From a virus (Duplodnaviria; Heunggongvirae; Uroviricota; Caudoviricetes), in IMG/VR virus record IMGVR_UViG_2639762987_000002: 64,000 nt of DNA; one strand, written 5' to 3'. Position numbers and translations under genes: made by a program. Below, in pieces: positions 14,880-61,159 of this stretch. A model generated the notes under the pieces. It was given only the letters and a program-made list of their open reading frames with translations. It ran no database searches and was not told the origin of the DNA. Position 1 is the first letter of the stretch, and each line of letters starts with the position of its first letter.

Positions 14880-15647
14880 TTATGCCGCGCTAACACTATG
14901 TTCAGTCCTAACCACCCCAACCTTCACAAAAGGGCTACCGTAGCTTGGTGGCTTCTTGATTAATTTGCCTACATACAGTTTTCTAATATGCTCATCGGCT
15001 ATTCTGCCAACAAATTCATAACGTTTTGTGTCGGGGCCAAGAGCTATATCCCTTGTAAAGTACTGCTGAGAACCGGCTTTGACCCAGCATTCAATCTGAT
15101 AAACTTCCATTATCAGCCCACCATATGTAGCGTAGGCATATTTGAGATTCTCGTCTCTTGGAACCTTTGCCCATACGCCACGCGTAGCTTCATATAATGC
15201 CAGAGCGGACATTCCTGACTTGTAGGTGCTGTTTAGCAGGAAGGCAAGACCGGCGTGCTCAGGAGCAATTTCAGTTTCCTCTTGCAGCACTAAGTGATGG
15301 TAGGCGTCCAGTGATATTCTGCCCATCATGGAACCACTTCCTCGTACCTTATTCGTAAGCTCTCCGACCCCCATAAGGTCGATGCATGTCGCCTCAACAA
15401 GTTTGGCTGTGGTTTCATCCATACCATGACGAAGTATATCTATGCCTAATTTTTTATTAGCCAAAAGTTCTTTGATCCGCATGGATTTGGGAGAGTCATC
15501 GGGATACTTGATGTGATCGAGACAACGAGTCGATTTGCCTTTTCCTATGTAAAACGGTCTTTTCATCTTGTCTTCTGTATCATAGAGACAGTAAACATAG
15601 TATTTAGCCTTATCCAATGATCTCGCGTATACCGATAAATCGTCCAT
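14880..15647 (-). CDS. GIY-YIG family nuclease
   Basis: 255 aa on minus strand; N-terminal YYVYCLYD...PFYIGKGKSTR matches the GIY-YIG motif; C-terminal domain unassigned. Confidence 0.6.
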   Translation of the reverse strand: MDDLSVYARSLDKAKYYVYCLYDTEDKMKRPFYIGKGKSTRCLDHIKYPDDSPKSMRIKELLANKKLGIDILRHGMDETTAKLVEATCIDLMGVGELTNKVRGSGSMMGRISLDAYHHLVLQEETEIAPEHAGLAFLLNSTYKSGMSALALYEATRGVWAKVPRDENLKYAYATYGGLIMEVYQIECWVKAGSQQYFTRDIALGPDTKRYEFVGRIADEHIRKLYVGKLIKKPPSYGSPFVKVGVVRTEHSVSAA

Positions 15648-23695: not shown

Positions 23696-23782
23696 GGGGA
23701 GTTAGTCCGTAGAGGTAGCGGTGTAGACTGTAAATCTACTGTCATGGCGACTCGGGTGGTTCGACTCCATCACTCCCCACCA
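23696..23782 (+). tRNA. tRNA-Tyr (anticodon GTA), long variable arm
   Basis: 87 nt; acceptor GGGGAGT/ACTCCCC, anticodon loop CTGTAAA, T-loop TTCGACT, 3' CCA. Confidence 0.65.
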
Positions 23783-24166: not shown

Positions 24167-24320
24167 GACACAGCGTTGAGCGGTTTGGCCTTTTAATCAA
24201 CTCGATTAAGACTCCGCTAACATAAACCAGACCGCTCAACGCTGTGATAGATAATTACGGCAGACGTTCTTAACCATAGCTTGCTAACATCCTAGCAACA
24301 CTTTTTTCAGCGCAAAATTC

Positions 24321-24343
24321 AAAGGGGCTTCGGCCCCTTTTTT
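24321..24343. terminator. Bidirectional rho-independent terminator
   Basis: AAAGGGGC-TTCG-GCCCCTTT with A-run before and T-run after; sits between tRNA cluster and the end of a minus-strand gene. Confidence 0.8.
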
Positions 24344-24358
24344 GTTGAACAGTGCAAT

Positions 24359-25621
24359 TTACTTTGCATAGTCGCCCAATTTTAATATTTCGCGCTTATA
24401 TTCATTAACCATGCTACTGGATTCAGTATAAATTCGATTTAAAAGATTATCGTTATCTTTATTTTCATTTATCTTAATTAGTGCTAATTTATATTCATAG
24501 TCATCAAATGCCACAATTAAATGGTGGCCTGGGATTATATCTTCGTCACTCTTAAAGTATATATCTTCAAGTATGTAATCTAGTTGATTAGATTTTCTTT
24601 TCTCGATGTAATCTTCAGCCATAGCTATTACATCATTCCTGTCATTTAACCTGTTTTTTTCGGAAGGCACATCTTCGTAATGTTGCACGATTGAACAACC
24701 AATAAGGCGTGGGATGTAAACGTCAAAATGAGTAACTCTATCATTCGCGGTTTTAAGTAGTTCCTCAAAGTAGTTTCTTACATGTAAAGGCAACTTCTCA
24801 AAGTAATCATTAATTATAGGAGAACAAGGAGTTTTATAATTCATAAGAACCGACGGTACGAGCTTTGGGTGTCGAAACATCCAGTCCCTTTTAACGTCCG
24901 ATGGAACATAATAACTTTTAATGATATTATCAAAATAATTTATCATTCGAGATTTGAATATTTTGTTGAATCTAAGGTTTATGAATGTATCCAGATAAGG
25001 CATATTTGAATAAGCATCATCAAAAAATATTTCTTCATTGAAGAAATCATATTTATTTAATAAATAAAACAGTTTTTCCGAATTAATATGTTCACAATAA
25101 TCGATTTTTAATCCAAAGATAGCAATGATCAACTTCATCTGAGGTGGGATTTTAAAAATTAATTGTGACACATACGCTCTTTTTTCCTTGAGACATTCCC
25201 CATCAATATAAAATGAACCATCCACATACTCAAATATATTAATAATATGCTTCACATACTGTATTACCTCATGCTGTCTTACCAATGGATAATATAGTCT
25301 ATGTAACTCATCGCTGTTTAAATTAATTTTGTGTTTATCGATAATTTGTTTTGCAAGAAGACATAACTCATCATGTTGATTTAATAAGGAATCAAACCAT
25401 TGTTTAAATGCACTCTTTCGCATTTCGAACAATGATTCAGTTGTTAATTGAAGGGCTGAAAAAGCCGCTTTTGCACTTTTTCTCGCTTCGTAGGCATTCC
25501 ATGCTGTTGCTATAAAAGCAAATGCTGTAGCCAATGTTCCAACAGTTTGACCATTTAAAACAACCCAATCCCAAAAAATGACGGTGAGCAGTAGTATAAT
25601 AATGAAAATTAAAAAAGGCAT
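24359..25621 (-). CDS. AT-rich membrane-anchored protein of unknown function (candidate exclusion/defence gene)
   Basis: 420 aa on minus strand; two N-terminal TM helices; strongly AT-rich by eye relative to flanks; own terminator. Confidence 0.6.
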   Translation of the reverse strand: MPFLIFIIILLLTVIFWDWVVLNGQTVGTLATAFAFIATAWNAYEARKSAKAAFSALQLTTESLFEMRKSAFKQWFDSLLNQHDELCLLAKQIIDKHKINLNSDELHRLYYPLVRQHEVIQYVKHIINIFEYVDGSFYIDGECLKEKRAYVSQLIFKIPPQMKLIIAIFGLKIDYCEHINSEKLFYLLNKYDFFNEEIFFDDAYSNMPYLDTFINLRFNKIFKSRMINYFDNIIKSYYVPSDVKRDWMFRHPKLVPSVLMNYKTPCSPIINDYFEKLPLHVRNYFEELLKTANDRVTHFDVYIPRLIGCSIVQHYEDVPSEKNRLNDRNDVIAMAEDYIEKRKSNQLDYILEDIYFKSDEDIIPGHHLIVAFDDYEYKLALIKINENKDNDNLLNRIYTESSSMVNEYKREILKLGDYAK

Positions 25622-25713
25622 GTATGTATTTCACTCTACTAACTATAAAATATTAGGCTAATGTTAACCAAACAATGCCTTAATTAATAGATTGATCGAG
25701 GCTTTAATAGCTT

Positions 25714-25753
25714 TATAATGCAGACCGCAAAGATAGGTATGCACATACCTATC
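25714..25753 (+). promoter_or_regulatory. Promoter with TATAAT -10 followed by perfect palindrome GATAGGTATG-ca-CATACCTATC
   Basis: TATAAT at 25714-25719; palindrome 25732-25753 belongs to the dispersed GATA(A/G)GTA...TAC(C/T)TATC family. Confidence 0.5.
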
Positions 25754-25795
25754 TTCTTTGTAAGTAAAGTTACATATCAATTCTACGAGGTCACA

Positions 25796-26041
25796 ATGAC
25801 GATCACTATCTACGGACGAGATAACTGCTCATACTGCAAACGTGCGGTCGAGCTGGCGAAGCAACTAAAGGGACATGGCTACGGTGATTATGAGTACATC
25901 GACATCACCACTGCCGGTATCGACAAGGAAAAACTAAGTGAAATTGTTGGTAAACCGGTAGAGACTATCCCCCAAGTGCTGATCGATGGCCAACCGATTG
26001 GCGGATACACAGAACTGGCTGCATACGTCAGCACCCTCTGA
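25796..26041 (+). CDS. Glutaredoxin/NrdC-like thiol-disulfide protein
   Basis: 81 aa from ATG 25796 with RBS GAGGT (ORF track begins 25718); active-site CSYC; C-terminal GG motif. Confidence 0.65.
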   Translation: MTITIYGRDNCSYCKRAVELAKQLKGHGYGDYEYIDITTAGIDKEKLSEIVGKPVETIPQVLIDGQPIGGYTELAAYVSTL

Positions 26042-26046
26042 TTTTA

Positions 26047-26068
26047 ACGGCTCACAGGAGCCGTTTTT
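26047..26068 (+). terminator. Rho-independent terminator
   Basis: ACGGCTC-ACAG-GAGCCGT hairpin followed by TTTTT. Confidence 0.75.
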
Positions 26069-26251
26069 ATTCCCACCAAACTCACTCCCGTTTCCCTTAA
26101 AATTCAAAAAACAACGTCAAAATGATTCCATACCTACTATGTATGGAATCATTGCTGAAAATGAGTTACTTTTACTCTTGATCCTATAAGAATCTATGCC
26201 TAATATACTGTTTACTTATACAGTGCATCGGCGTAACTCGGTGATTGTCAT

Positions 26252-27355
26252 ATGAAAAATAGCTTTGACAGAGCACGCGCTGCGGAGAACACCTCAAAAG
26301 AGGCGATAGAGTATCTCGAAAGAGCATCTCAAATGCAGGCCGTTATGATCTCGCAGGTTAGCAATGACATGAGATTCTCGGACGCATTCATGTTATTCAC
26401 TCGCTTATCTCTGCTGATAACCAGACGTCGGCCAGAGATCGCTGTTCATTGTATTTTGATACATGTTTTGCCGCACATTGCCGATGTAAAAGTAAGTGAC
26501 ATTAATAGGTTCATGGTGAACCAACTGGTCAACCCACTAATACTGGATGGCAAAATTGTTATGGGCCGCCGCGTTTTCTCTCTGATGAAGCAGTTCCTTA
26601 GCTGGTGCGCCTTCCAGGGGATGATAGACGTGTCACCGTTAAACGATATGTCACTAAACAAAGTTGCCGGTGGCGCAAAGCCCACACCTCGCGAGCGGAA
26701 GCTGACCGACGCAGAGGTATGGGTGTTCTGGAATATATGGGACTACTTCAATGTGTGCGCTGGTACAAAATGGGCGGCCAGGCTGTGTCTTGTATCCGCA
26801 AGACGACCTGACGAAGTACTGCGGGCTAAAAAAAGTGAGTTCAATCTTAAGCGTGGGGTTTGGAATCAAGGCAAGAGGAACAAATCTGCCCGTGAGCATT
26901 CGCTGCCTTTAAGCACATTAATGCGCACATGTATTGAAGAGTTGTTCGAATACGGTAAAGGCAGCCAGTGGCTCGTGCCTTCGAATAAAAAAATCGGGAA
27001 AGACCTTCCTATGTCTAAAGTGGCAATAGCCCAGGCATTACGTCGTATCCTGGAACGACCAGAACTGATGGAGCTTGAGCCATTTACACCCCGAGACTTG
27101 CGCCGTACTGCGCGTAGTTACTTCCCAGCATTAGGCATAAGCCAGGAGGTATCACGTAAAATCATGAACCACAGTCTTGAGGGGATAGATCGAGTCTACG
27201 ACCGGCACGATTATATGGACGAGATGCGAGACGCCTTAGAAAGTTTCTCGACGTACATCGCATCAATCGTAGAGCAACCGGATTTAGACGAAATTGACCA
27301 CAAATTTAAGGGAGATCGTCTATCAACAGAGCTTATTCGTGTAAATTTTTCATAG
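26252..27355 (+). CDS. Tyrosine site-specific recombinase (integrase or resolution recombinase)
   Basis: 367 aa; C-terminal region with ARRPDEVLR, LRRTARSY, NHSLEG...YDRHDY resembling tyrosine recombinase boxes. Confidence 0.6.
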   Translation: MKNSFDRARAAENTSKEAIEYLERASQMQAVMISQVSNDMRFSDAFMLFTRLSLLITRRRPEIAVHCILIHVLPHIADVKVSDINRFMVNQLVNPLILDGKIVMGRRVFSLMKQFLSWCAFQGMIDVSPLNDMSLNKVAGGAKPTPRERKLTDAEVWVFWNIWDYFNVCAGTKWAARLCLVSARRPDEVLRAKKSEFNLKRGVWNQGKRNKSAREHSLPLSTLMRTCIEELFEYGKGSQWLVPSNKKIGKDLPMSKVAIAQALRRILERPELMELEPFTPRDLRRTARSYFPALGISQEVSRKIMNHSLEGIDRVYDRHDYMDEMRDALESFSTYIASIVEQPDLDEIDHKFKGDRLSTELIRVNFS

Positions 27356-27736
27356 AGACTTTATGGCCTCAACAACCTTTTGTGATGCGCCTTTCTCTTT
27401 ACCGAATCGCTCGTTATATGCAGCAAGAACCTGTTTTTCGTCCTCGTTAAGAGGAGCAGTGCCTTCTTTGTATAAAAATGCTGCGAGTTCGGGTTGGCGT
27501 TCTTCCAGCACCATCATCATAAGACGACTTGGCTCAATACCCAGTGCCAGCGCCAGCGGACGAACCTTATCGATAGGCAAAGGAATTTTGCCGCTTTTAA
27601 TTAAAGAAAGGTTGTTGGCGTTTTTATACCCAATTGTTTTGGCTATCTGGGCCTGGCTCATAGGTGAGGATTCAATCAACCCTGCGATAAAAGCAGCGTA
27701 GCGACTTTCTATAAATTCAATCTTGTTATCAGACAT
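27350..27736 (-). CDS. XRE-family helix-turn-helix transcriptional regulator
   Basis: 128 aa on minus strand; HTH segment SQAQIAKTIGYKNANNLSLIKSG; divergent from downstream operon. Confidence 0.6.
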   Translation of the reverse strand: MSDNKIEFIESRYAAFIAGLIESSPMSQAQIAKTIGYKNANNLSLIKSGKIPLPIDKVRPLALALGIEPSRLMMMVLEERQPELAAFLYKEGTAPLNEDEKQVLAAYNERFGKEKGASQKVVEAIKSL

Positions 27737-44360: not shown

Positions 44361-44893
44361 ACCGCTGACAGCATACACAATCAACTACCGCTGATAGCAT
44401 ATCGAGAGTCTATCTCACCGCTCACAGCATACTTTACTCGATTTTTTACCGCTGACAGCATACTTAAGAAATTGCATGAATAATGTGTCCCGGTATGGGT
44501 ATAACCAGAACAAAATTACCGCTGGCAGCATACGAATGTCTGACATATACCATTAATTACCGCTGATAGCATATCCAAACAAAAATTCCTCAATAAAACA
44601 CCGCTGACAGCATACGTTCTATCAGGGAGTAGCAGGCAATAAATGCCTTTCACTACAAGCAATCAGCGCAATAGCAATAGAATGTTAGTGAGCGCAAACC
44701 TATATGGAATGCACTCTTCGAGGTTAGTAACCACTGGGGAGGTATGACAGAGCATTGAGTGGTGATAGATGATTTACCGCTCACAGCATACGTTCATCTC
44801 ACTATACCGCTGGTAGCATATCTTTAACCGTTCACAGCATACTTTTCAGAAAAATAGCCGCTGATAGCATACATTTCACCGCTGACAGCATAT
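44361..44893 (+). repeat. Iteron array downstream of rep gene (12 direct repeats, consensus ACCGCTGACAGCATAC)
   Basis: Copies begin at 44361, 44387, 44417, 44448, 44518, 44559, 44600, 44776, 44806, 44827, 44857, 44878; all same orientation, irregular spacing 21-70 bp. Confidence 0.85.
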
Positions 44894-45987
44894 CAAAGCA
44901 GTTTGAGACTATTGGAAAGGATCTCAATCATCTTGATATTTTCAGGCGTCAAATTCTGCGAAAGTTCGGTTATCTTGTTGATAATGTTCTGTTTGGCATC
45001 AATTTCCCCAGCTTTCTCATCTGGTTTTTTGGGTTCGATGTCTTCAGGTTTTGGCGGTGCGACTTTGAGTTTTGGATTGCGGCTGTGAATCTGGATATAG
45101 ATCGACCGCCCACGCTTAATCTCGCTGTATTCGAGATAGCCCAAATCTTGGAGAGCTTTTAAGCCGTTACGTATAGTCTGATTCTGCGAGCTGACATTCC
45201 TGCTACTCAAATTGAGTCGCGCACGCAATCGAGCAAGCGATACCGGCGCAGGCTTGGTTGGAAGACTTTCGATGAAGGTGTACAGAGCCTGTGCTGTTTC
45301 TTTGCGTGGTAGCTTATTGATAACCTTTAACTGCAAAAGAACCTTATGGTCAAAGCGATATAGCTCGGCCAGCTTCGGTTCTGCATAGAACACCACCGTA
45401 TCTTTCTGCTCGTTGTAGTCCACGCTATTGATGAGGTGCACCATCAGAAGCGAGATCTTGTTAGAGCCGTCGACGTTCTTTTCTTCATACGTTCTCTGGA
45501 AAGACAGAGTTGTACGCATGATCTTCAAAAGACTGTTTGTAAGCCGGTCGCGGAGTGTTTTGCGGATCTGTGACGATGGATAGCCACAAAACTTAGCAAA
45601 TTTCGTGATGCTTAACTCGACACGACCGTTAGGTTCGCCGTATTCTGCCAGCGAACGCACAACGCCCACCCACGTTTTGAAATCATGATCCATGTCGAGA
45701 CGAGGACCGGTTATCTTGATATCGGAATAGCCTTCAGAACGGGCTACTTCGAGCTGGACAAGCTCCTTTGAAGCATCGATCTCATTTGGCTTGTTACGTT
45801 TACTGTATTTTGTTCCCTTAAGCGTGGGGACGAACAACCCCAGTCGCATCAACGCAATTGGTTGGACTGTATTGTTGCTATTAGGGACAAGTTCCCCTGT
45901 GTACAATTCAAGGGAACCTTCTTCAAAGTTGTCGATGTTATCTTCTACTTCTTTGTTATTTTTACCTTTTTTATTTTTTGTGGACAT
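44893..45987 (-). CDS. repA: Iteron-binding plasmid-type replication initiator (RepA-like)
   Basis: Minus strand, 364 aa from ATG at 45987 with RBS AAAGG (ORF track extends to 46107 across iterons); flanked on both sides by iterons. Confidence 0.6.
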   Translation of the reverse strand: MSTKNKKGKNNKEVEDNIDNFEEGSLELYTGELVPNSNNTVQPIALMRLGLFVPTLKGTKYSKRNKPNEIDASKELVQLEVARSEGYSDIKITGPRLDMDHDFKTWVGVVRSLAEYGEPNGRVELSITKFAKFCGYPSSQIRKTLRDRLTNSLLKIMRTTLSFQRTYEEKNVDGSNKISLLMVHLINSVDYNEQKDTVVFYAEPKLAELYRFDHKVLLQLKVINKLPRKETAQALYTFIESLPTKPAPVSLARLRARLNLSSRNVSSQNQTIRNGLKALQDLGYLEYSEIKRGRSIYIQIHSRNPKLKVAPPKPEDIEPKKPDEKAGEIDAKQNIINKITELSQNLTPENIKMIEILSNSLKLL

Positions 45988-46007
45988 GTGGACACCTTTG
46001 TCATTCA

Positions 46008-46109
46008 ACCGCTGACAGCATACTTGATTTGCCGCTGACAGAATACCAAAAACAGTTGGCAGCATACGGTGAACCGCTGACAGACTATCAATTACCGCTG
46101 ACAGCATAC
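46008..46109 (+). repeat. Origin-proximal iterons upstream of rep gene (5 copies, about 21-bp periodicity)
   Basis: Copies at 46008, 46031, 46052 (degenerate), 46073, 46094. Confidence 0.8.
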
Positions 46110-59633: not shown

Positions 59634-60191
59634 ATGACAACGATTGTTGCAGGCATCGATATCGAGTCTACGGGACTGGATTTCCTTGCTGGTCATAAAA
59701 TTATTGAAATCGCAATTACCCGCTATGAACTGGAGACACAGAGACATATTGATAGTCTGGAGATGCGTTTTAACCCTCGCAGAAACATAGATCCGAAAGC
59801 TCAAGCCGTTCATGGCATTTCATTGGAACAGCTCGCAGCTGAACCTTTGTTGTCAAATCATGCCAGCGAAATTGGCGCTTATATGGGGGCATGTAGTGTG
59901 TGGGTTGCTCATAACGGCGAAGCATTTGATATACCATTTATTCGACACGAGTTTTCAGGGTATGGAGTAAGACTGCCAGAAGTTCCTGTTATAGATACTA
60001 TGTTATCGGGATTGTGGGCCACAGAAGACGGCAAACGTCCCCGCCTTGAAGAGTTGGCCTTCTCTCTTGGCTATATATACGATCATGCCAAAGCACATAG
60101 TGCCTTATATGACACAAACTTAATGATGCAATGCTTCTTTAAGGCACGTAATAAGTACGGATTTTTTAAATTACCCTCTGAAATTGTGTAA
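59634..60191 (+). CDS. DnaQ-like 3'-5' exonuclease (DEDDh)
   Basis: 185 aa; Exo I GIDIESTGL, Exo II HNGEAFD, Exo III HSALYDT. Confidence 0.75.
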   Translation: MTTIVAGIDIESTGLDFLAGHKIIEIAITRYELETQRHIDSLEMRFNPRRNIDPKAQAVHGISLEQLAAEPLLSNHASEIGAYMGACSVWVAHNGEAFDIPFIRHEFSGYGVRLPEVPVIDTMLSGLWATEDGKRPRLEELAFSLGYIYDHAKAHSALYDTNLMMQCFFKARNKYGFFKLPSEIV

Positions 60192-60195
60192 AACA

Positions 60196-60233
60196 AAAGC
60201 CTACTTTAAAAAGTTTAAAGTAGGCTTTCTTTT
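60196..60233 (+). terminator. Rho-independent terminator
   Basis: AAAGCCTACTTT-loop-AAAGTAGGCTTT followed by CTTTT. Confidence 0.8.
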
Positions 60234-60349
60234 AAAGAACAGTAGCCTTTCAATCATTTCCTGCCTGTATTTAATACTTTTCCGCCTGATAGGTTTAGTC
60301 AAAATGCAGCCATCGAAACGCAAATGTAACCAAACAGAAGGAGACTTAC

Positions 60350-61159
60350 ATGAGTTCGGTTGAAAATGTAATGACAAATGATGATCTGGACGAGCTGACA
60401 GCCATGTTGCAATCACTTGATGAACCAGTAAAAAAAGCTGCACAGGTTGAAAATACTGATGATATTGACGATCTGCTGCTCGGCCTAGATGCTGGCGTAG
60501 CCATGAGTTCTGATGATGTTGCCGAAGAACTGTTCAATGAAGAAAAAGCAGGTGATTTCAGCTCTGCTTTAAATGAGTTGGAGTTAGCGCATGAGCCTAT
60601 AAACGTAATTAACGCTGAAAGTGTTGAAGCTGCCGAAAACGAGCCAGAACAATTGGGATTTATTGAGGTTGAAGAGTGTGTTGAGGTTAATGATGAATTA
60701 AAAGTTCAACAGTCAAATGATAGCAATACAAATAAAAAAGCTCGTACTGCAAGAGGTCCTCGTTTTACTTTAAGTGATAAAGATGATTCGTTTTTCAATA
60801 AAGCGGGCTTAGAAAAAGATATTTTCTTAGACGCTTACGATAACGCGCCTGTCAAAGCAAAGGATAAGATATTAAACCTTCTTAATTGGTTTAGCGGAGG
60901 TCCAGATATTAGTGTTTACACGGTAATTTCCATGAGACACCTTCTCACAGAAAAGAAGGCTACAAGTAATAGTATTAAGATTGCTTTAATGAGCAATCCA
61001 GAAAAACCGTATCCGCTTAATACTGCGTCAACTCAGGCTGGGCAAATGATGGCTGTATTTCCAGCGACAGGAATTGCCGTTAGAGACGGTGGAAATCTAA
61101 CATTGAACGAAGAATCACCGATCGTTAAGAAGTTTGTCGCGGAGTACACTATTGGATGA
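60350..61159 (+). CDS. Hypothetical acidic protein
   Basis: 269 aa; D/E-rich N-terminal half; RBS AAGGAG. Confidence 0.5.
   Translation: MSSVENVMTNDDLDELTAMLQSLDEPVKKAAQVENTDDIDDLLLGLDAGVAMSSDDVAEELFNEEKAGDFSSALNELELAHEPINVINAESVEAAENEPEQLGFIEVEECVEVNDELKVQQSNDSNTNKKARTARGPRFTLSDKDDSFFNKAGLEKDIFLDAYDNAPVKAKDKILNLLNWFSGGPDISVYTVISMRHLLTEKKATSNSIKIALMSNPEKPYPLNTASTQAGQMMAVFPATGIAVRDGGNLTLNEESPIVKKFVAEYTIG

Follow-up and report, generated by a model that had tools for sequence, protein, structure and literature searches.

What is a conspicuously AT-rich gene, transcribed against the surrounding phage genes, doing next to the tRNA cluster of a phage-plasmid? The question is raised by an open reading frame (ORF) of 420 codons in a 64,000-nucleotide stretch of DNA, IMG/VR virus record IMGVR_UViG_2639762987_000002 (here called the window; coordinates of the features are collected in Table 1). 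An initial annotation made from the letters alone had singled this gene out as a candidate for exclusion or defence. The window comes from an SSU5-supergroup phage-plasmid, non-mobilizable and roughly 110 kb in size. The region of the gene is 99.8% identical across 11.5 kb to Escherichia coli plasmid pAVS0968-B. Its conserved parts match Escherichia phages Cyrano and CMS-2020a at 95 to 98% identity, and Salmonella phage SSU5 is a relative. We propose that the product of the gene is a phage-defence factor that acts as a single, membrane-anchored protein and belongs to the AbiC/AbiP (putAbiC) superfamily, and that the gene is carried as exchangeable cargo of the phage-plasmid, a reading to which we assign a probability of about 0.6.

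The link to the superfamily came from profile methods. In a scan of PHROGs the sole match of the protein was the unannotated family phrog_18168 (E = 6.7e-215), and a word-indexed protein search returned seven clusters, every one from the same genomic slot; the cluster of the gene itself comprises 301 member sequences. An exhaustive hidden Markov model (HMM) search of 1.84 billion proteins with the seven same-slot alleles yielded 67 representatives, 45 of them at E <= 1e-10. Forty of 53 aligned family members matched Pfam PF16872, putAbiC ("putative phage abortive infection protein"), whose gathering threshold is 22 bits. The scores of P0029 (45.1 bits), P0037 (37.2), P0031 (36.4) and P0028 (36.2) exceed it, with P0009, P0020 and P0024 likewise between 22 and 45 bits; the same-slot allele P0007, which was not found in complete E. 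coli genomes, scored 18 bits, and the window protein also falls short of the threshold. The PADLOC models for AbiC and AbiP were matched by 7 and 4 of the 53 proteins, respectively, at E = 1e-6 to 1e-2 and in distant relatives only. The putAbiC matches of the relatives lie at their residues ~120 to 220, and the PADLOC matches fall on the same stretch, equivalent to window residues ~108 to 200. Conversely, the same-slot profile detected canonical members by hmmsearch (P0029, E = 4.7e-26; P0031, E = 1.3e-22), and hhalign aligned the same-slot alleles with canonical putAbiC members over 289 columns, residues 16 to 313, with 99.9% probability (E = 8e-37). A tblastn search with the window protein reached a Pantoea plasmid gene named "putative phage abortive infection protein" (E = 4e-7). 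Taken together, these sequence comparisons place the protein very probably in the putAbiC superfamily, an assignment that we regard as secure even though the curated models miss it. The earlier impression that the protein has no recognisable motif thus stands for direct Pfam and PADLOC scans but not for profile methods.

AbiC (Prf), of the Lactococcus lactis plasmid pTN20, was described in 1992. According to a 2026 review, AbiC has two transmembrane (TM) helices and an extra-membrane helical domain without an assignable fold, and it lowers production of the major capsid protein; AbiP, a single-helix relative with which it is grouped as AbiC/P, binds nucleic acid, depends on its membrane anchor as well as on its soluble domain, and is triggered by a phage major tail protein (PMC13064643). 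Like AbiC of pTN20 (PF16872; PADLOC PDLC02343), the window gene is a single gene of very low G+C content on a mobile element. Its product is predicted to have the same architecture, two N-terminal membrane helices followed by a helical domain, and profile-profile comparison indicates that the AbiC core is homologous to residues ~108 to 200. In contrast to AbiC, it has lost most of the canonical polar residues, is undetected by the Pfam and PADLOC models, is longer (420 residues against 306 positions in the PADLOC profile) and resides on an enterobacterial phage-plasmid rather than a lactococcal plasmid. With AbiP (PADLOC PDLC02351) it shares membrane anchoring and a related helical core, and distant family members match the AbiP model. 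However, AbiP has a single membrane helix and 223 profile positions and binds nucleic acid. The net charge of the window protein, considered as a proxy for such binding, is negative (about -8 over the whole protein), and its core is not basic. The canonical putAbiC branch, PGAP-named proteins of 430 to 470 residues on Pantoea and Erwinia plasmids (e.g., P0029 and P0031), is similar in overall length. It shares with the window subfamily the TM2 motif ATAW-x-A-x-EAR-x-SA, an LLLEQH motif and an FF motif, but where the canonical branch has GH-x-I-SPYMR-x-LYHLLK, KKYSS-x-RS-x-I-x-ND and FFEHA, the window subfamily has IQYVKHIINIFE, RAYVSQLIFKIPPQ and FFNEE.

The HEPN-type abortive-infection proteins (AbiD/F, AbiJ/Abi_C and AbiV) were considered as an alternative family and rejected. 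Two family alignments contain no invariant or nearly invariant Arg column and no conserved R...H pair that would correspond to the HEPN Rx4-6H motif, and Pfam gives neither a HEPN nor an Abi_2 match for the window protein. The literature on Abi_C, AbiJ and SadR, which concerns this unrelated HEPN family, was set aside, and a literature search on putAbiC or PF16872 found no papers.

The chromosomal relatives point in the same direction as the homology. A locus search with a 15-sequence alignment recovered only three chromosomal loci, all of which are AT-rich islets in GC-rich genomes. Two of the three lie directly beside validated defence systems: the homologue of Siccibacter turicensis (L010) adjoins bSEFIR (PADLOC, E = 8.8e-111), and that of a Lelliottia sp. 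(L009) adjoins AriA/AriB, the PARIS system. Both homologues are at 33 to 34% identity. The neighbours of the third, in a Pantoea sp. (L011), were a DNA methylase and UmuC only.

The two N-terminal TM helices noticed in the initial annotation were confirmed by hydropathy and by structure prediction. On the Kyte-Doolittle scale residues 2 to 22 are strongly hydrophobic (maximum 2.8) and residues 24 to 44 moderately so. An AlphaFold2 model built with the 53-sequence alignment reached a pLDDT of 89.9 and a pTM of 0.77; an earlier run with seven sequences was not used for searches because its pLDDT was 63. The model predicts helices at residues 2 to 15, 17 to 22 and 24 to 96, with segments 2-22 and 24-44 packed as a tight hairpin that turns at N23/G24, leaving essentially no periplasmic loop. 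The single long helix 24-96 carries on from TM2 as a stalk, and is followed by a helical core (residues 106 to 306) and a small alpha/beta subdomain (residues 307 to 420) whose beta strands lie within residues 310 to 364.

Conservation across the subfamily is highest in TM2 and the stalk (0.80 for residues 41 to 60). An invariant TM2 motif, T32-x2-AF-x2-TAW-x-A, is followed by the stalk motif YEARxSAKAAxxAxxxTxxSLxExxKxxFxxW and then LLxQH. The invariant residues are T32, A35, F36, T39, A40, W41, A43, A46, S49, A53, A56, T60, L64, E66, K69, F72 and W75; the segment is rich in Ala, Ser and Thr, with small residues spaced 3 to 4 positions apart, and the invariant motifs hold in at least 15 diverged family sequences. 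The core, residues 121 to 200, ranks second, with Y122, F193 and F194 invariant. In contrast, residues 201 to 420 are poorly conserved (0.18 to 0.32 across the family), and in some alleles the terminal ~110 residues, that is, the alpha/beta subdomain, are exchanged for unrelated sequence. Thus, the Salmonella Anatum allele (L017:1501-2721, pSAN1-1735) aligns to residue 311 only, its last ~100 residues being without similarity, and alleles with such swapped C termini retain 37 to 40% identity across residues 1 to 311. This pattern suggests domain swapping within the AbiC-like family. Matches in Enterobacter and E. coli plasmids resembling that of Anatum cover just 74% of the query. Separately, the RefSeq start of the Klebsiella, Enterobacter and Salmonella alleles is an internal ATG that gives 398 residues (L014:4031-5227, L015:4031-5227 and L016:4028-5224). 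For L014, the allele that was checked, an upstream start in the same frame adds MPVLLILILGTV, the first membrane helix, for a total of 410 residues, as in the Lelliottia chromosomal copy.

The predicted membrane topology bears on an alternative, superinfection exclusion, in which the protein would block DNA entry or early steps of infection at the membrane without killing the cell, especially against related SSU5-type phage-plasmids. The predicted membrane anchor, the strong conservation of the membrane helix and stalk, the prophage-expressed orientation of the gene in a temperate element, and the allelic diversity at a single slot, which would suit specificity against competing relatives, all agree with such a role. 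However, the homologues AbiC and AbiP are of the Abi type and act after DNA entry (PMC13064643), the near absence of a periplasmic loop in the model would leave little surface to meet an incoming phage, and on chromosomes the homologues occur in defence islets that have no connection with phage-plasmids. We consider exclusion unlikely.

The compositional oddity of the gene was borne out by windowed GC calculation: at 31.4% against 45.7% for the window, it is the minimum among all 1,263-bp stretches (z = -4.5). Its GC content at third codon positions is 28%, and its product contains 10.5% L, 10.2% I, 7.9% K, 7.4% D and 6.7% each of F, N and Y. It is also, as first noted, one of very few genes on the minus strand, which holds about 4 of the ~60 non-nested ORFs of at least 100 residues in the window, this one included. 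The ORF starts with ATG, is intact and ends with a stop codon at positions 24359-24361.

The gene occupies a replaceable cassette with sharp edges, as expected of the insertion hotspot that the initial annotation had suspected. We defined the edges as blastn breakpoints against three relatives (L001, L004 and L006): similarity ends at positions 24344-24346 and restarts at 25761-25794. In other plasmids with flanks 94 to 99% identical, the slot holds alleles at 97, 89, 88, 83, 53 or 32% protein identity (over all, from 97% down to 30% amino-acid identity) or an unrelated 302-residue minus-strand gene of 29% GC, and in phage Cyrano and 77 complete E. coli genomes a small plus-strand gene of the Gp49_66 family. 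Every allele is AT-rich relative to its surroundings (31 to 38% against 44 to 54% GC), with the ORF intact and of constant length in all allele classes. The backbone order is ligase, four small genes, a tRNA cluster (Asn, Tyr, Thr and Ser), the slot, grxA, integrase, helix-turn-helix (HTH) regulator and a CobT-like gene; the gene does lie between the tRNAs and the recombinase/regulator pair, as first described, but grxA intervenes before the latter. The adjacent terminator, comprising hairpin arms at 24321-24340 plus a T-run and ending 13 nt beyond the stop codon, is indeed usable in both directions but is not the gene's own. Phage Cyrano has the same hairpin without the gene, and the terminator is therefore a conserved backbone element downstream of tRNA-Ser.

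In its fixed breakpoints, conserved backbone, mutually exclusive AT-rich cargo and patchy distribution, the slot resembles the P2/P4 hotspots and the P1 accessory loci. It differs from them in that one protein family recurs across four genera as very divergent alleles, and in its location between a tRNA cluster and a grxA/integrase block, with no recombination-site repeats found at its edges. An integron-like arrangement, with cassettes served by the neighbouring tyrosine recombinase, was rejected, since related palindromes are not found at every cassette edge. The palindrome within the cassette (Table 1) and a second, near-perfect one, AATGATTCCATACCTA/TATGTATGGAATCATT at 26121-26153, share the 8-mer CATACCTA, but this word is barely above chance (4 occurrences observed against 1.1 expected, with 4 of 100 shuffles reaching 4), and no such palindrome is present in the alternative 302-residue cassette. 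The second palindrome marks the right edge of another variable slot (26042-26251), directly upstream of the integrase gene. This slot, between grxA and the integrase gene, is empty in the window; in relatives (L004:4450-5478, L013:6069-7097 and L001:4365-4919) it contains a YafO-family toxin gene and a 202-residue gene, the 184-residue CYRAN_43, or genes of 75 and 178 residues, a YafO-family toxin gene being often present there in phage-plasmids. The 302-residue occupant of the main slot (WP_001755525.1; L012:4646-5554 and L013:4646-5554, both on the minus strand) has no membrane helix and no Pfam or PADLOC match. With LLRHTIVHNSGRF it has an Rx4H pattern that recalls HEPN RNases, and it is a further unannotated defence candidate.

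Could the gene simply be a decaying or silent moron, acquired horizontally and non-functional in its host? Its very low GC content would make silencing by H-NS likely, and no strong promoter was found for it. The sequence comparisons argue otherwise. Relative to the Escherichia albertii allele, the gene has accumulated 68.5 nonsynonymous and 45.5 synonymous differences (dN 0.071, dS 0.214, omega 0.33), whereas dN of the flanking genes is 0.002 to 0.011 in the same comparison. The omega value, together with a dN above that of the flanks, indicates a functional gene under purifying selection that diverges much faster than the backbone. The intact ORF of constant length in each allele class, the motifs invariant across diverged sequences and the size of the protein cluster likewise speak against decay, which we regard as very improbable. 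The gene also occurs, at 85.7% protein identity, on the E. albertii plasmid p2014C-4015-1 (L002, 63.8 kb) and on six other 62-kb plasmids of this species. These plasmids have retained the backbone of the replication side (helicase, primase, ligase, integrase, CobT and DnaE) and, at ~60% of the usual phage-plasmid size, may be deletion derivatives.

The distribution of the gene is patchy. Among complete E. coli genomes, it was present in 39 of the 252 that carry the neighbouring integrase, always on plasmids. In PLSDB, 134 plasmids have any family member against ~650 with an SSU5-type ligase: 69 of 220 in Escherichia, 35 of 189 in Klebsiella, 18 of 90 in Enterobacter and 6 of 49 in Salmonella, with no match in this tally for Yersinia against its 43 ligase-carrying plasmids. 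A family member is thus carried by about 20% of SSU5-type elements. A tblastn search of 50,697 phage records yielded no match to the window protein or to a Klebsiella allele. The homologues of Klebsiella, Enterobacter and Salmonella are 34 to 38% identical and syntenic, oriented opposite to their neighbours and flanked by the ligase/tRNA side and a phoH-gp49-grxA block. The initial annotation had named conservation throughout the related phages, with normal codon usage, as grounds for abandoning the idea of a defence or exclusion gene; the gene instead is missing from most relatives and from the phage records, and its codon usage is abnormal.

Synteny across Escherichia, Klebsiella, Enterobacter and Salmonella elements can also be read as a sign of a non-defence role, in which the protein, tethered to the membrane, would serve maintenance, control lysogeny or modulate the host, or would stabilise the plasmid state as a toxin of the addiction type. 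Neighbouring slots hold YafO-type toxin genes, and regulation is suggested by the palindrome upstream of the gene, which recurs as an inverted repeat ahead of each of the six abiC-like alleles examined, also where the divergent neighbour is phoH instead of grxA. From this conservation of sequence, the palindrome is a candidate operator. The gene is nevertheless dispensable, as ~80% of SSU5-type plasmids do without it and so does every phage genome deposited for the group, plaque-forming SSU5 and Cyrano among them. Moreover, neither an antitoxin-like partner gene nor RNA repeats turned up, and the homologues on chromosomes occur singly beside known defence systems. A role of this kind appears improbable to us. 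A toxin-antitoxin type of abortive infection (ToxIN/AbiQ type or type II) was rejected as well, given that there is neither an adjacent antitoxin gene nor tandem RNA repeats: the cassette has no small co-oriented ORF and no tandem repeats except two short chance arrays, and Rfam detected tRNAs only and no non-coding RNA in the cassette.

Several observations weigh against assigning the protein a phage-defence role of the AbiC/AbiP kind. It has no Pfam putAbiC or PADLOC match even at E <= 1. Where canonical putAbiC proteins have polar residues with a conservation of 84% or more, it mostly carries other residues, largely hydrophobic ones: this applies to H116, S120, H128, K131, R155, N160, D161, N169, Y184 and H196 (window numbering). 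Thus, canonical H116, R124, H128, K131, R155, N160, N169 and H196, each 84 to 97% conserved, are Q, K, N, E, I, P, F and E here, and only H83, Y122, F193 and F194 are kept. This loss explains the failure of the Pfam model; by the same token, the biochemical activity may differ from that of canonical putAbiC proteins. A lactococcal protein resembling AbiC, with 38% identity to it, conferred no resistance against the phages used in the test (PMC11381338), and the mechanism of AbiC and AbiP themselves is unresolved (PMC13064643). The promoter scan found no consensus sigma-70 promoter upstream of the gene on the minus strand; its presumably weak promoter would lie within the divergent intergenic region. 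Finally, the recurrence of family members in the same slot across four genera could reflect a role in the biology of the phage-plasmid itself. We infer the anti-phage role from homology, cassette behaviour and defence context, and we rate it, at about 0.6, below membership of the superfamily because the phenotype is inferred only, the polar residues are lost and the 38%-identical lactococcal protein was inactive. With these reservations, the homology to AbiC and AbiP, the hotspot, and the bSEFIR and PARIS neighbours support the suggestion of an abortive-infection or exclusion-type gene made at the outset.

If the protein is a membrane-anchored defence factor, it might work as follows. While the element is a resident plasmid prophage, the gene would be transcribed from its own promoter, opposite to the surrounding phage genes. 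The tight two-helix hairpin would insert the protein into the inner membrane, and R47, K48 and K51, right after TM2, would place the remainder in the cytoplasm in keeping with the positive-inside rule. The fast-evolving C-terminal half could sense a product of the infecting phage, as a phage major tail protein triggers AbiP, upon which the conserved N-terminal module (TM2, stalk and helical core) would block late phage development or kill or arrest the cell, so that the clonal population bearing the phage-plasmid would be protected. A split between a conserved N-terminal effector and a variable, swappable C-terminal sensor is suggested by analogy with other single-protein Abi systems and with the triggering of AbiP by a structural protein.

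The conservation pattern leaves room for a bolder version of the proposal, which we put forward tentatively and consider rather unlikely: the enterobacterial phage-plasmid subfamily might be a functionally distinct membrane-effector immunity protein, not merely a weak copy of AbiC. The Ala/Ser/Thr-rich TM2-stalk would then serve for oligomerisation or as a pore and, once triggered, collapse the membrane, and the lost polar core would mean that an ancestral, possibly nucleic-acid-directed, activity was abandoned. Recognition of a particular phage or rival phage-plasmid would fall to the swappable C-terminal alpha/beta subdomain. If this is true, the syntenic slot would be an allelic specificity locus maintained across Enterobacteriaceae.

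Table 1. Coordinates of the AT-rich gene, its cassette and other features of the window
Feature	Position	Strand	Basis or remark
Coding sequence of 420-residue AbiC/AbiP-like (putAbiC-superfamily) membrane protein	24359..25621	-	ORF list, phrog_18168, profile link
Predicted N-terminal hydrophobic helical hairpin; TM1, residues 2-22, TM2, residues 24-44	25490..25618	-	Hydropathy, AlphaFold2
Juxtamembrane stalk helix, residues 45-96, continuous with TM2	25334..25489	-	Alignments, conservation profile
Helical core, residues 108-200, counterpart of the 80-position Pfam putAbiC model	25022..25300	-	putAbiC matches of relatives
Variable C-terminal half, residues 201-420	24362..25021	-	Conservation profile, model
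Replaceable cassette	24347..25760		Little or no nucleotide similarity to relatives that are 94-99% identical elsewhere
Bidirectional terminator, a GC-rich hairpin flanked on each side by an A/T run	24321..24346		Terminator scan; left cassette edge
Divergent intergenic region, 174 bp, moves with the cassette	25622..25795		Promoter scan; wholly different in the 302-residue variant
Sigma-70-like promoter for grxA	25692-25719	+	Promoter scan
Perfect palindrome with 12-bp arms, AAGATAGGTATG-CA-CATACCTATCTT	25730..25755		Repeat search; ~120 nt upstream of the start codon
Glutaredoxin gene grxA	25796-26041	+	Between the AT-rich gene and the integrase/HTH pair
GIY-YIG gene	14880-15647	-	Another minus-strand ORF of the window
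HTH regulator gene	27350-27736	-	Another minus-strand ORF of the window
Rep3-type initiator gene	44893-46107	-	Another minus-strand ORF of the window

Some features elsewhere in the window deserve mention. The GIY-YIG gene, which encodes a 255-residue LEM-3-like protein (E = 5.5e-07), is located where the GC skew is negative and may be an insertion of the homing-endonuclease type. The second most AT-rich kilobase, 60001-61159 (38.5% GC), contains a plus-strand ORF of 269 residues (60350-61159) with no Pfam match, possibly another cargo gene. A tRNA-Tyr gene (23696-23782) stands between those for tRNA-Asn and tRNA-Thr, whereas phage Cyrano has Asn, Thr and Ser only, and the tRNA cluster itself is therefore variable. 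Rfam scored the tRNA-Ser, slightly below threshold, as a tRNA-Sec, probably due to its long variable arm alone. Directly after tRNA-Ser and before the terminator hairpin, the conserved backbone contains a 20-nt inverted repeat, 95% complementary with a 38-nt spacer (24169-24246).

Single-protein abortive infection of the AbiC/P type and cargo hotspots in temperate elements were known already. New are a divergent AbiC/P subfamily invisible to the Pfam and PADLOC models, its recurrence as highly divergent alleles at one syntenic slot in four enterobacterial genera, and a conservation pattern unlike that of the canonical family, with the membrane helix and stalk retained but the polar core gone. 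AbiC is not among the systems listed when SSU5-group elements were surveyed with DefenseFinder in a recent publication. About one SSU5-type phage-plasmid in five from E. coli, Klebsiella, Enterobacter and Salmonella, clinical lineages included, has a member of the subfamily. SSU5-type plasmids have been reported to reduce phage plating on Klebsiella (PMC8969562), and genes such as this AbiC-like one are candidates for that effect. The cargo slot is now precisely defined and holds further unannotated defence candidates, such as the AT-rich 302-residue gene. The finding extends a superfamily whose members AbiC and AbiP are mechanistically unexplained and have no solved structure or recognisable fold. 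Its main value is that the subfamily offers an E. coli-native, tractable system for the mechanism of AbiC/P, with a natural allele series and C-terminal swaps that can be used to map specificity.

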